This document shows positions 54,021 through 60,903 of a stretch of 64,000 nt of DNA, one piece after another. The notes beneath the pieces were generated by a model. It did no database searches. It was not told where the DNA came from and was given only the letters and a program-made list of their open reading frames with translations. The DNA is from an uncultured bacterium (GTDB lineage: Bacteria; Babelota; Babeliae; Babelales; Babelaceae), in NCBI GenBank assembly GCA_963722385.1, contig CAVRKK010000002.1:992001-1056000 (forward strand), read 5' to 3'. Position numbers and translations under genes: made by a program. Within the stretch, counting starts at the first letter, position 1; each line of letters starts with the position of its first letter.

Positions 54021-56303
54021 TTAAAGGTCGTCTACAGATAACTTGTTATCAAAATTGACACTTGCGGTAGCACGATGATGATACTGACGGTACTTATAGA
54101 ATAGAAAAACGGCGCCTACGGTGGCTGCTGTTAAAGCAGTAAGGCCAAGGGGAATACCTACGGTAGTACCTATAATTACTCCGAGAGGTAAACTACTACT
54201 TGATCCATCACCATCGCCCTGCGAGCTTCCAAGCAAGACTGGTATGAGTGAAACATCATTTGAATAGAGATTAGCGGTGAGTGCATAGGTGCCACTTGGT
54301 GAAAAAGTGATACTGACACAGTGGGTTGAGTTAGCGGGAAGTAAAGATGTTGCTGCTTGTGGTAATGTACCTCCTGTAGCGTTAAAGAAAGTGACACTGC
54401 TCGAATTGCTATTAGCTACCGCGAGATAGTTGCCATTTAATGAAGAAGCAATTGACTGGGGATTCATGGTATTCTGTGGTAACAGATAGGAACGACCATC
54501 AGCAAGAGTGTCATTGTGTACCGTAAAGATGGTGACATCATTTGACGCGCTATTAGCAGTTGCAAGATAGAGGTTGTTATTGTTAGCAAAAAAGGTAATT
54601 GACTGCGGTTCTGTAGAACCACTTGGAAGAGCATATGAAAGAGCATTGTTTAAATCGCCAGCTGTTACCTTAAAGAGAGTTACATCGCTTGAATATGCAT
54701 TTGCTGTTGCAAGATATATCCCTTCTGGAGAAAAAGAAAGACTGACGGGATATAAAGAGCCTGCAGGTAATGGATAAGAAAGGGCATTTTGTAAAGATCC
54801 TTCTACGACGTTAAATACAGTTACATCGTTTGAATCGCTGTTGGCTACTGCAAGATAAAAATCGTTGGGTGCAAATTCTACCGATGCTGGTTTTGTCGAT
54901 CCTGCAGGTAAGGTATATGAAATATTTGCCACAAGCTTGTCATTTACTAAGGCAAAGAGTGTTATATCGTGTGAATTACTATTGGCAGTTGCAACATAGG
55001 AATTATTAGTTGAAAAAGCAATAGAAGCTGGATGGGTTGAATTTAAAGGTAGTTTATAAGATATTACCGAAGCTAAAGAAGTGCCATTCATGGTGAACAA
55101 GGTTACATCACTTGAGTTGAAATTTGCTGTAGCAAAATGCTTATTGTCGGATGCAAATGCTATTGAGTCAGGCTGCGTAGAGCCGAGTGGTAAATGAAAG
55201 GAAATGCTTGTGACTTGTTCCACTTGAAATATCGTTACATCATTTGATCCACTATTAGCTGTAGCAAGGTAAGAACCATCAGGTGAGAATGCTACTGATT
55301 CAGGTTCGTTGGAACCACTTGGTAATGGGTATGATATTCCTTTCGATAGGACTCCTCCTGCTTCCATTTGAAATATTGTCACACTCCCAGGATTATAATC
55401 GTTAGTAGTAGCAAGATATGACCCGTTGGTCGAAAATGCGACTGAGGAAGGCTCACTAGAACCGCTTGGTAATGCATATGATACTGCTCCCGACAATACT
55501 CCTCCTACTCCAATCTGGAATATTGTTACATCATTTGAGAATATATTAGCGATAGCAAGATATGAACCATCGGGCGAAAAGGTTACTGAGTAAGGAAAGC
55601 TAGAACCGCTTGGTAGGACATATGATACTGCTCCCGATAACACGCCCCCTGCTCCAACCTGGAATAGTGTTACATCATTTGAGCCGTTATTAGCCGTAGC
55701 GAGATATGAGCCATCAGGTGAAAATATCACTGAATAAGGAGTACTTGAGCCGCTTGGTAATGCATAGGATGTTGCGCCCGATAGTACGCCTCCTGCTCCG
55801 ACTTGAAATACTGTTACATTAGCTGAGTTTGCGTTAACAGTAGCAAGACATGAACCGTCGGGAGAAAATGCTACTGAATAAGGAGTACTTGAGCCGCTTG
55901 GTAATGCGTACGAAGCTGCATCCGATAAGACGCCTCCTGCTCCTACCTGAAATACTGTTACATCGGTTGAGTTCGTGTTAGCAGTAGCAAGATATGAACT
56001 ATTAGAAGAAAATGCTACTGAAATAGGATAGGTAGAACCACTTGGTAATGCATATGACACTGCTCCCGATAACACACCTCCTGCTCCTACTTGAAATATT
56101 GTTACGTTGTTTGAGTCTGCATCAGCAGTAGCAAGATATAAGCCGTTAGGTGAAAATGCTACTGATACAGGATAGCCAGAACCGCTTGGTAATGCATAAG
56201 TGGATGCTCCTGATAAAGTTACCGCGTTGGCATGTATGCTTGTTAAAATGGTCAGAACTGCGCTGAGCAGAAGAGTGTAAAAATGACCTATGTGTAATGA
56301 CAT
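54021..56303 (-). CDS. Type-I membrane-anchored 14-blade (double) beta-propeller protein, copy A
   Basis: Signal peptide; 7 highly similar 48-aa repeats plus 7 diverged repeats; GDGDG-Ser linker; TM; short tail. Confidence 0.88.
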   Translation of the reverse strand: MSLHIGHFYTLLLSAVLTILTSIHANAVTLSGASTYALPSGSGYPVSVAFSPNGLYLATADADSNNVTIFQVGAGGVLSGAVSYALPSGSTYPISVAFSSNSSYLATANTNSTDVTVFQVGAGGVLSDAASYALPSGSSTPYSVAFSPDGSCLATVNANSANVTVFQVGAGGVLSGATSYALPSGSSTPYSVIFSPDGSYLATANNGSNDVTLFQVGAGGVLSGAVSYVLPSGSSFPYSVTFSPDGSYLAIANIFSNDVTIFQIGVGGVLSGAVSYALPSGSSEPSSVAFSTNGSYLATTNDYNPGSVTIFQMEAGGVLSKGISYPLPSGSNEPESVAFSPDGSYLATANSGSNDVTIFQVEQVTSISFHLPLGSTQPDSIAFASDNKHFATANFNSSDVTLFTMNGTSLASVISYKLPLNSTHPASIAFSTNNSYVATANSNSHDITLFALVNDKLVANISYTLPAGSTKPASVEFAPNDFYLAVANSDSNDVTVFNVVEGSLQNALSYPLPAGSLYPVSLSFSPEGIYLATANAYSSDVTLFKVTAGDLNNALSYALPSGSTEPQSITFFANNNNLYLATANSASNDVTIFTVHNDTLADGRSYLLPQNTMNPQSIASSLNGNYLAVANSNSSSVTFFNATGGTLPQAATSLLPANSTHCVSITFSPSGTYALTANLYSNDVSLIPVLLGSSQGDGDGSSSSLPLGVIIGTTVGIPLGLTALTAATVGAVFLFYKYRQYHHRATASVNFDNKLSVDDL

Positions 56304-58629: not shown

Positions 58630-60903
58630 TTAAAGATCGTCTACTGATGACTTGTTATCAAAATTGACACTTGCGGTAGCACGATGATGATACTGACGGT
58701 ACTTATAGAATAGAAAAACGGCGCCTATGGTGGCTGCTGTTAAAGCAGTAAGGCCAAGGGGAATACCTACGGTAGTACCTATAATTACTCCGAGAGGTAA
58801 ACTACTACTTGATCCATCACCATCGCCCTGCGAGCTTCCAAGCAAGACTGGTATGAGTGAAACATCATTTGAATAGAGATTAGCGGTGAGTGCATAGGTG
58901 CCACTTGGTGAAAAAGTGATACTGACACAGTGGGTTGAGTTAGCGGGAAGTAAAGATGTTGCTGCTTGTTGTAATGTACCTCCTGTAGCGTTAAAGAAAG
59001 TGACACTGCTCGAATTGCTATTAGCTACCGCGAGATAGTTGCCATTTAATGAAGAAGCAATTGACTGGGGATTCATGGTATTCTGTGGTAACAGATAGGA
59101 ACGACCATCAGCAAGAGTGTCATTGTGTACCGTAAAGATGGTGACATCATTTGACGCGCTATTAGCAGTTGCAAGATAGAGGTTGTTATTGTTAGCAAAA
59201 AAGGTAATTGACTGCGGTTCTGTAGAACCACTTGGAAGAGCATATGAAAGAGCATTGTTTAAATCGCCAGCTGTTACCTTAAAGAGAGTTACATCGCTTG
59301 AATATGCATTTGCTGTTGCAAGATATATCCCTTCTGGAGAAAAAGAAAGACTGACGGGATATAAAGAGCCTGCAGGTAATGGATAAGAAAGGGCATTTTG
59401 TAAAGATCCTTCTACGACGTTAAATACAGTTACATCGTTTGAATCGCTGTTGGCTACTGCAAGATAAAAATCGTTGGGTGCAAATTCTACCGATGCTGGT
59501 TTTGTCGATCCTGCAGGTAAGGTATATGAAATATTTGCCACAAGCTTGTCATTTACTAAGGCAAAGAGTGTTATATCGTGTGAATTACTATTGGCAGTTG
59601 CAACATAGGAATTATTAGTTGAAAAAGCAATAGAAGAGGGATTAAGTGATCCTGAAGGTAGTTTATAGGATATTCCTGATACAGAAGAAGTACTGTTCCT
59701 GGTAAACAAGGTTACATCGCTTGAATTATAGTTTGCTGTAGCAAAATGCTTATTGTTTGATGCAAATGCTATTGAGTCAGGCTGTGTAGAGCCGGGTGGT
59801 AGGTGGTATGAAGTGCTTGTGGTTCGTTCTACTTGAAATATTGTTACATTGTTTGAATTATAATTAGCAGTAGCAAGATATGAACCGTCGGCCGAAAAGG
59901 CTACTGAGTAAGGGTAGGAACTTGGTAATGCATATGACATTGCTCCCGATAACACGCCCCCTGATCCGACCTGGAATATTGTTACATTGGCTGAGCCTAT
60001 ATTAGCAGTAGCAAGATATGAACCATCAGGCGAAAAGGCTACTGAGTAAGACTCACTAGAGCCACTTGGTAATGCATATGAAACTGCCCCCGACAATGCT
60101 CCACCGGCGCCAACTTGGAATATCGTCACGTCACTTGAACCGTAGTTAGCGGTAGCAAGATATAATCCATTGGGCGAAAATGCTACTGAAGAAGGGGAGG
60201 TAGAACCGGTAGGTAATGCATATGAAACTGCCCCAGCCAATACTCCACCGGCGCCAACTTGGAATATTGTTACATCATTTGAGCTCGCATTAGCAGTAGC
60301 AAGATATGATCCATCGGGCGAAAATGCTACTGTCCAGGGAGAGCTAGAACCACTTGGTAATGCATATGAAACTGGTCCAACCAATACTCCACCTGCACCA
60401 ACTTGGAATATCGTTACGTCATTTGAGCCCTCATTAGCAGTAGCAAGATATGATCCATCGGGTGAAAACGCTACTGATAAAGGATCACTAGAACCGCTTG
60501 GTAATGCATATGATACTGCTCCCGATAACACACCTCCTGCTCCAACCTGGAATATAGTTACATTGGCTGAGTCGGAATTAGCAGTAGCAAGATATGAATC
60601 ATCGGGTGAAAAGGTTACTGAGTAAGGCGCGCTAGAACCGCTTGGTAATGCATATGATACTGCTCCCGATAACACACCTCCTGCTCCAACCTGGAATATA
60701 GTTACATTGGCTGAGTAGAAATTAGCAGTAGCAAGATATGAATCATCGGGCGAAAATGCTACTGAATTAGGATTTATAGAACCGCTTGGTAATGCATAAG
60801 TGGATGCTCCTGATAAAGTTACCGCGTTGGCATGTATGCTTGTTAAAATGGTCAGAACTGCGCTGAGCAGAAGAGTGTAAAAATGACCTATGTGTAATGA
60901 CAT
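58630..60903 (-). CDS. Type-I membrane-anchored 14-blade beta-propeller protein, copy B
   Basis: Same architecture as copy A; leader and last ~1 kb nearly identical to copy A. Confidence 0.88.
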   Translation of the reverse strand: MSLHIGHFYTLLLSAVLTILTSIHANAVTLSGASTYALPSGSINPNSVAFSPDDSYLATANFYSANVTIFQVGAGGVLSGAVSYALPSGSSAPYSVTFSPDDSYLATANSDSANVTIFQVGAGGVLSGAVSYALPSGSSDPLSVAFSPDGSYLATANEGSNDVTIFQVGAGGVLVGPVSYALPSGSSSPWTVAFSPDGSYLATANASSNDVTIFQVGAGGVLAGAVSYALPTGSTSPSSVAFSPNGLYLATANYGSSDVTIFQVGAGGALSGAVSYALPSGSSESYSVAFSPDGSYLATANIGSANVTIFQVGSGGVLSGAMSYALPSSYPYSVAFSADGSYLATANYNSNNVTIFQVERTTSTSYHLPPGSTQPDSIAFASNNKHFATANYNSSDVTLFTRNSTSSVSGISYKLPSGSLNPSSIAFSTNNSYVATANSNSHDITLFALVNDKLVANISYTLPAGSTKPASVEFAPNDFYLAVANSDSNDVTVFNVVEGSLQNALSYPLPAGSLYPVSLSFSPEGIYLATANAYSSDVTLFKVTAGDLNNALSYALPSGSTEPQSITFFANNNNLYLATANSASNDVTIFTVHNDTLADGRSYLLPQNTMNPQSIASSLNGNYLAVANSNSSSVTFFNATGGTLQQAATSLLPANSTHCVSITFSPSGTYALTANLYSNDVSLIPVLLGSSQGDGDGSSSSLPLGVIIGTTVGIPLGLTALTAATIGAVFLFYKYRQYHHRATASVNFDNKSSVDDL

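Follow-up and report, generated by a model that had tools for sequence, protein, structure and literature searches.

Blade exchange and variable loops in a genome-wide family of membrane-anchored beta-propellers, a possible binding repertoire of a Babelaceae bacterium

In the HNWD/NWD genes of Podospora anserina (het-d, het-e), propeller blades evolve in concert within and between loci, pseudogenes share repeats with other copies, and the products form double propellers, as set out in the cited parts of PMC1805685 and PMC12222747. Repetitive propellers are widespread, and PMC9218822 reads those it treats, including the WRAP type (2YMU), as independent amplifications of a single blade. Here we describe a propeller family with features of both, represented by two neighbouring genes, copies A and B, in a 64,000-nucleotide (nt) stretch of DNA from an uncultured bacterium of the Babelaceae (GenBank assembly GCA_963722385.1, contig CAVRKK010000002.1, positions 992,001 to 1,056,000), hereafter the window. 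Its genome, G000, comprises 1.60 Mb in two contigs (C1 and C2) and is 93% complete; G001 is a congeneric genome. We give even chances to the reading that A and B, as members of a genome-wide family of anchored propellers, form part of a diversifying binding repertoire placed in host-derived membranes by a likely protist parasite.

The original prediction likened A and B to HET-E-type WD40 repeats, and the mode of repeat evolution is the same. The selected sites of HET-E (7, 9, 25 and 27, as given in PMC1805685) and the variable sites here (8, 9, 11, 27 and 28) both occupy the d-a loop and the b-c turn. The Podospora proteins carry NACHT and HET domains, whereas the present family is bacterial, has neither, and is built from a lactonase-like blade of 48 residues; it occupies ~44 loci as against 10, holds its blade number at multiples of seven and keeps a constant proximal ring. 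Its signal peptide and membrane anchor make it extracytoplasmic, unlike HNWD/NWD. The family thus works like the HET-E family but is not a member of it. A WRAP propeller is the top fold match of both structural models, and the family shares with these propellers a high internal identity (>60% in ring 1) and many decaying copies, but its blades are passed between dispersed genes; the main text of PMC9218822 uses none of the terms hypervariable, transmembrane and Dependentiae.

Far from the pair or trio of genes first supposed, the genome holds 49 blade-bearing open reading frames (ORFs) at ~44 loci, together 91,773 nt or 5.7% of its length. Exact multiples of seven blades occur in 32 of the 49, with 7 blades in seven ORFs, 14 in fourteen, 21 in ten and 28 in one; three of these 32 lack the N-terminus. 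The other 17 are mostly fragments of broken loci, and ~15 loci are broken or partial. Homopolymer phase variation was considered for these and set aside, a run of five being present at only 2 of the 14 frame junctions examined. At least 66 ORFs, or at least 8.7% of the genome, belong to the family in G001, a lower bound counted from the regions retrieved, and 45 of them have 7, 14, 21 or 28 blades. Whole members consist of a signal peptide, 7, 14, 21 or 28 blades and a C-terminal anchor; among the members listed, 28 have their own start, mostly with a ribosome-binding site, and a hydrophobic leader.

Pfam and NCBIfam scans returned propeller families only, with PF10282 as the best Pfam match and NACHT absent from the matches. 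Lactonase-like seven-bladed propellers of PF10282 are close known proteins: the same blade makes up single secreted propellers both in relatives of the family and in Solirubrobacteraceae-named proteins. Identity as a 6-phosphogluconolactonase was rejected (78.8 bits against an NCBIfam equivalog cut-off of 370), and the hypervariable central face also argues against catalysis. When B was searched against 41 genomes, 18 matched, strongly only G000, G001 and G008; the loci examined in weaker-matching genomes encode WD40 proteins or single secreted lactonase-like propellers, the latter being the likely ancestral form. No viral relatives were found among 22 candidate stretches and no close strains in JGI metagenomes, where the best segments reached only 44-49%; the best ESM Atlas score, 0.79, is a lead only. 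No description of the family in Dependentiae was found in the literature searched, which excluded subscription papers and supplements. New here are its scale, the exchange of blades between dispersed genes, two cysteines that co-vary in a genome where no Dsb machinery was found, and tails of eukaryote type.

A and B each have 14 blades of ~48 residues, with mean identity between blades of 70% (A) and 77% (B) in ring 1 and 48% in ring 2. The original prediction had noted identical leaders and a nearly identical last kilobase: the leaders agree over 154 nt up to codon 7 of blade 1, divergence starting at the first variable codon, and the last 1007 nt (54021-55027 and 58630-59636) differ at five positions. 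All 14 of its SGS[xx]P[x] and TAN[xx]S motifs agree with the translations, with S in place of P in blade 6 of B and blade 7 of B two codons short. Adjacent B blades are identical over 85 nt with no difference (60488-60572 and 60632-60716), as had also been observed. The third member, at the start of the window, does carry the YG and WG residues reported for it, but it is only the 3' half of a 21-blade gene. The single-pass anchor proposed earlier agrees with the C-terminal helix of the predicted model and with a long uncharged span.

Variability in the distal blades is concentrated at five positions. Entropy is highest at positions 11, 27, 9, 28 and 8 in 280 G001 blades, and these five also rank first in 245 other blades of G000; the entropy, neighbour, exact-match and signature statistics for G001 are drawn from 31 of its 66 ORFs. 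Nearly every complete five-residue signature is distinct (207 of 212 in G000, 223 of 224 in G001). In the predicted model, the d-a loop holds sites 8 and 9, strand a opens with site 11, and the b-c turn contains 27 and 28, so that all five are predicted, from strand topology, to line the top face of the propeller, as the variable face of the original prediction would require. Tyrosine accounts for 15.7% of 993 residues at four variable sites, 3.7 times the expectation from random codons; Gly is enriched 2.8-fold and Asn 2.2-fold, while Leu, Arg and Lys fall to 0.2-0.3 of expectation. This composition is not drift-like. We take it to resemble that of antibody paratopes.

Comparisons between closely related blades place the change at these sites. 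Across 16 non-overlapping close pairs, amino acids changed in 27 of 76 variable codons versus 17 of 542 distant scaffold codons, and first and second bases differed at 36 of 152 variable positions versus 2 of 100 fourfold sites beside the loops. A site model with the synonymous rate fixed (125 blades from 24 genes) gave ratios of nonsynonymous to synonymous rate (omega) of 1.6, 4, 5, 4 and 1.6 at the five sites, and below 1 at all of the other 43 of 48. Fifteen of the 27 changed variable codons differ at two or three bases, which suggests that replacement of very short patches may contribute.

Repeat shuffling, including shuffling between blades, was part of the original prediction and is visible both in nearest neighbours and in exact tracts. 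For proximal blades the nearest neighbour is the blade at the same position of another gene in 156 of 175 cases (G000) and 147 of 175 (G001); for distal blades this holds in only 62 of 259 and 58 of 280. The nearest neighbours of the remaining G000 distal blades lie in the same gene (67 of 259) or at another position of another gene (130 of 259). Judged by these patterns, the ring adjoining the anchor is inherited vertically, and distal blades are exchanged within and between genes. A shares an exact 169 nt with the gene at C2:752647, and B shares 215 and 189 nt with that at C2:749192, ~295 kb away; a variable loop specific to B separates its two tracts. Exact matches of at least 20 nt tile 1040 of 1110 nt of the distal part of B and 771 of 1119 nt of that of A, figures given without a computed null. 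Broken copies take part in tract sharing. One broken 3' fragment (C2:845721-846524) has exact stretches of 476 and 225 nt in common with an intact 21-blade gene (C2:353003-356356) 490 kb away. RecA and MutS are both encoded in G000.

The predicted model of B (pLDDT 83.4, pTM 0.53) has 14 four-stranded blades between an N-terminal and a C-terminal helix. Its best fold match is the WRAP double propeller 2YMU, at a TM-score of only 0.33-0.43. The distal 14 blades of a 21-blade paralog, modelled with low confidence at the termini, agree better with closed double propellers (0.57-0.65 to 2YMU). Cysteines before blade 1 and after blade n-7, the last distal blade, are both present in 33 of 49 members, both absent in 14 and discordant in 2, a count that omits three ORFs with lost N-termini and in which paralogs are not independent. 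From this co-variation, the pair is likely a disulfide that clasps the distal unit. Together with the ring pattern it suggests a design in which a distal unit of 7, 14 or 21 blades sits on a constant ring and anchor. A and B themselves lack the pair. DsbB was found in 0 of 25 genomes, no DsbA-like domain was found in G000, and VKOR was not found in G000 or G001 but was present in 7 of 25 genomes.

The C-terminal tails fall into three classes. In the main class, which includes A and B, all 49 anchored members have an uncharged span of 28-34 residues, 42 carry a VN[FY]-like motif, and 41 end in Leu, compared with a background of 93 of 720. A search of 1.84 billion representatives, eukaryotic ones included, gave no homologue of the B tail outside the family; of its 11 matches, eight were family members and three repeat noise. 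A Pfam scan of the tails found nothing above cut-off. The second class has seven blades and a Cys-containing stalk, and 10 of its 12 tails (from which P0133, a near duplicate of a G001 protein, is left out) contain [DE]xxxL[LIV], eight of them as L[LI]; one more has GYxxI. Mean identity among these tails is 29%, shuffling yields 0.33 motif-bearing tails on average and at most 3 in 5000 shuffles, and the background in G000 is 29 of 761 ORFs. The [DE]xxxL[LI] and GYxxPhi-type consensus sequences are sorting signals read by the adaptors AP-1, AP-2 and AP-3, according to the relevant part of PMC5297682. The third class combines an S/T stalk with a short end that is hydrophobic or amphipathic, and several members end in charged residues. 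Such ends may in part resemble glycosylphosphatidylinositol (GPI) signals, which consist of an omega site, a spacer and a hydrophobic C-terminus. N-glycosylation sequons are modestly in excess (476 versus a shuffled mean of 407, with a maximum of 455 in 100 shuffles); turn geometry could explain this, and we do not use it as support.

The bacterium itself is likely a protist parasite, as its gene content suggests. G000 encodes ATP/ADP translocases, ankyrin genes and two Omp85 proteins, LpxC had no match there, and the small genome and this gene set fit the description of Babeliales in the part of PMC4776705 cited here. Because outer-membrane assembly genes are present, an inner-membrane anchor alone would not display the propellers on the cell surface. 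Type II secretion genes comprise GspC, two GspD-like secretins, a PilM/GspL-like gene and two T2SSE-family ATPases. At C2:774-783 kb (L091 9049-18339), two secretins of ~1000 residues lie with GspC and a PilM/PilN-like fusion; secretins occur in 24 of 25 relatives searched, two or three in each. Rhomboid proteases were found in 0 of 25 genomes of this order and in 14 of 14 control genomes, and no CTERM family matched any of 19 tails; the search for sorting proteases covered rhomboids, not exosortases or sortases. Seven of the 19 tails show a weak likeness to the MyrrCad anchor (best E 4.6e-6, below cut-off). In Chromulinavorax, a relative, signal peptides are present on 44% of proteins, and budding of vesicles is seen in the food vacuole, as reported in the section of PMC6561590 cited here.

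As to how the loops diversify, we propose that homologous recombination (RecA) would convert tracts of ~20 to more than 200 nt between blades, keeping the scaffold uniform while recombining loops; selection would retain new combinations of Tyr/Gly/Asn/Ser-rich top-face loops, and copies with blade counts other than multiples of seven would be removed or left to decay. Variability could also arise without adaptation if conversion, which needs homology, stopped at loops that already differ, leaving a homogenised scaffold and loosely constrained loops that drift. The raised synonymous rates at the variable codons (1.5-5x), the differences at two or three bases in 15 of 27 changed codons and the ~15 decayed loci are what such a process would leave. 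We nonetheless consider it improbable: residue composition at the variable sites is far from drift, the same positions are conserved in the proximal rings of close paralogs (nonsynonymous differences, pN, 0.02-0.08 versus scaffold synonymous differences, pS, 0.04-0.25), where a loop differs, synonymous differences in its flanks affect 3 of 60 codons versus 30% in random pairs, and 32 of the 49 ORFs have retained a blade count divisible by seven. The original prediction suggested a search for the reverse transcriptase and template repeat of a diversity-generating retroelement, on the ground that the second TAN[xx] codon, codon 28, usually ends in C or T. It does so in 204 of 235 blades, but this is not special, as the conserved Gly codons 6 and 19 share the bias (221 of 248 and 203 of 258). 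The only reverse transcriptase match in the genome, which is 93% complete, is a frameshifted group II intron fragment at C1:278.6 kb (L001 1474-2099); 495 of 498 blade DNA matches lie within family ORFs and the remaining three in or beside broken copies, with no template repeat; and all four bases occur at every codon position of sites 9, 11 and 27, with no adenine-specific change. The chance that such an element mutates the loops is negligible. A misassembled duplication, which had also been raised, or tracts created by polishing, we regard as highly improbable. The repeats are long, no read or contig crosses the whole locus, and the 3' junction of B is unbridged among the pieces listed; but contigs from public soil runs, shallow as they are, match blades 6-8 of A (410 nt) and, in a contig of run X2 over 60001-60318, blades 4-6 of B (318 nt) without a difference. 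Contigs also bridge three of the four junctions between gene and unique flank (both of A and the 5' one of B), odd read pieces map exactly to other paralogs, and the second genome carries the same family.

As to where the proteins act, they would exit by Sec and reach a host-derived membrane, of a vacuole, an endosome or the cell surface, with propellers facing the lumen or outside. The tails would reach into the cytosol of the host and present their sorting motifs to its adaptors; delivery may involve membrane vesicles or the type II secretion system. The tail motifs, the Dsb proteins not found, the vesicles of Chromulinavorax and the precedent of Salmonella SteD lead us to favour host-derived membranes, which we rate a coin-toss, over the bacterial surface. 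SteD is a bacterial transmembrane protein that inserts into the host endoplasmic reticulum and Golgi and relies on a dileucine-like signal and AP1, in the account taken from PMC9182567, although it is a small type III effector from a single gene with an inverted motif, and lacks signal peptide, large luminal domain and diversification. Rather more tentative, and to us somewhat short of probable, is the fuller proposal that the bacterium installs an antibody-like repertoire of eukaryote-style type I and GPI-like receptors, diversified through gene conversion of blades across the chromosome, in the membranes of its protist host, whose adaptors sort them, altering what the cell or vacuole binds. 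The same diversification could instead serve adhesins or a coat on the bacterial surface, reached through type II secretion or a reduced outer membrane, with effects on host range or on evasion of digestion. Host recognition or adhesion, the role given in the original prediction, is likewise putative. Signal peptides with ribosome-binding sites, the type II secretion genes, the sub-cut-off MyrrCad likeness of 7 of 19 tails and the degenerate envelope of Babeliales (in the cited part of PMC4776705) speak for this; the lack of rhomboids in 25 genomes, and hence of a rhombosortase, the missing CTERM match, and the conservation across two species of tails with eukaryote-type sorting motifs, which would have no clear use if the anchor were cut or bacterial, leave it doubtful. 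Retention in the periplasm as inner-membrane sensors, decoys or traps against phages or competitors is, like drift of the loops, improbable, even though it is the default topology in a diderm for a Sec signal with a C-terminal helix and WRAP WD40 propellers are linked to bacterial innate immunity (in the cited text of PMC9218822): there is no signalling or effector domain, the tails are ~25 residues long, the cysteine pair is found without Dsb machinery, and the cost is 6-9% of a reduced genome.

Several points weigh against a selected repertoire in host-derived membranes. Omega inside the five variable codons is 0.675 (scaffold, 0.207), and once the synonymous rate is left free, site 27 alone tends to exceed 1 (likelihood ratio 4.5); thus the elevated dN/dS expected by the original prediction appears relative to the blade-wide synonymous rate, but is ~0.7-1 within the variable codons. 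Recombination also breaks the tree model of the codon analysis. Testing 31 G001 ORFs gave no true exact match of at least 50 nt; exchange is therefore not continuous, and its recent traces are seen only in G000. The dileucine motif is absent from A, B and all 56 long members examined, and since A and B lack the cysteine pair as well, the evidence for host membranes comes from their relatives. The 12-member Cys-stalk subclass was hand-picked after the motif was seen, and its members are kin; seven of the 12 come from G000 or G001, the other five carrying P identifiers. With G000 only 93% complete, the absence of Dsb genes is unproven. By default, a type I protein exported by Sec would stay in the inner membrane of the bacterium itself, and we know of no route for such a protein into a host membrane.

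Antigenic variation by gene conversion among paralogs renews the variable surfaces of Borrelia vls, Anaplasma msp2 and Neisseria pilin; the single expression site and silent cassettes of those systems are not evident here. Mycoplasma MyrrCad proteins (NF033158) are likewise paralogous repeat proteins on a common C-terminal anchor, though scores here fall below cut-off. The recognition and manipulation of protist hosts by Dependentiae is almost unknown, and a family that takes up 6-9% of two reduced genomes offers a testable handle with five defined sites; reported host ranges are narrow (in the portion of PMC6561590 cited). Its ~430 distinct blade faces on a sevenfold scaffold also make it a natural library. 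If host adaptors do read the tails, large bacterial membrane proteins must have some Sec-dependent way into eukaryotic membranes; no such route was found in the literature searched.

Blade polymorphism between strains, which the original prediction proposed to look for, did not emerge from the public-run contigs. A candidate at 54882-54978 was rejected because 16 of 16 alternative letters match the paralog at C2:1199422; elsewhere, paralogs account for five smaller letter sets, and each of three odd read pieces has an exact match at another G000 locus.

Table 1. Features of the A/B locus and of the 21-blade gene, in window positions
Feature	Position	Strand	Comment
Copy A, 760 residues	54021..56303	-	Signal peptide, 7 distal shuffled and 7 proximal constant blades, G/S/D linker, transmembrane span, short tail
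Copy B, 757 residues from the Met behind a ribosome-binding site	58630..60903	-	Architecture as in A
B predicted Sec signal peptide, identical in A	60823..60903	-	Hydrophobic N-terminal helix in model; putative cleavage site, A-x-A motif
B transmembrane span, 32 uncharged residues, then basic stop, SVNF and C-terminal DDL	58705..58800	-	
A 169-nt tract (end of blade 4 to codon 8 of blade 6)	55457..55625	-	Identical in 21-blade paralog C2:752647-755961, including variable codons
B 215-nt tract	60212..60426	-	Identical in paralog C2:749192-752494, blades 9-11
B 189-nt tract	60001..60189	-	Identical in paralog C2:749192-752494, blades 11-12
Two identical 85-nt scaffold stretches in adjacent B blades	60488..60716	-	
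43-nt element upstream of B	61005..61047		Start of duplicated unit
Second copy of 43-nt element, 4 mismatches	58494..58536		Directly after B 3' flank; probably the former upstream element of A
2.1-kb segment between second 43-nt element and A	56392..58493		Probable insertion
AlbA_2/RecG-C gene in 2.1-kb segment	56891-58237	+	
Inverted repeats around AlbA_2/RecG-C gene	56727-56769 and 58242-58284		
101-nt repeat in 2.1-kb segment	58380-58480		Four more G000 copies, 96-98%
21-blade family member, 3' half in window	1..1737	+	Full gene C2:990381-993737

The features of the locus (Table 1) make A and B look like a head-to-tail duplication that begins at the 43-nt element, and the 2.1-kb segment would have entered between the second copy of this element and A. 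That element was rejected as an operator shared by the family, its matches being only those beside A and B (up to 9 mismatches) and a gapped copy at C2:1201270. A repeat related to the inverted repeats around the AlbA_2/RecG-C gene occurs at C1:299702, and paralogs of this gene lie at C2:388k, 950k and 1253k. Two copies of the 101-nt repeat lie within 1.5 kb upstream of family genes (C2:988879 and C2:1180072). Between hflX and B (61111-61264) stands a remnant, 85% identical, of the 3' end of a DoxX gene (53217-53371), a trace of an older rearrangement, and an ISAs1-type transposase gene is located at 31284-32477.

Elsewhere in the window, a gene for a protein with an LHH-type HNH nuclease domain (1983-2909, minus strand) directly follows the 21-blade gene. 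Ankyrin-repeat genes cluster at 11702-21037 and 27302-28432, one encoding 1158 residues with many repeats, and two tandem DUF2807 (GIN) putative adhesin genes lie at 28762-30435 (plus strand). Four tandem ORFs of 308-319 residues occupy 47891-51707 (plus strand), three with weak PI3/PI4-kinase or HipA-like matches, and may encode effector kinases. The non-coding stretch at ~62940-63290 is, by resemblance, a candidate RNase P RNA.

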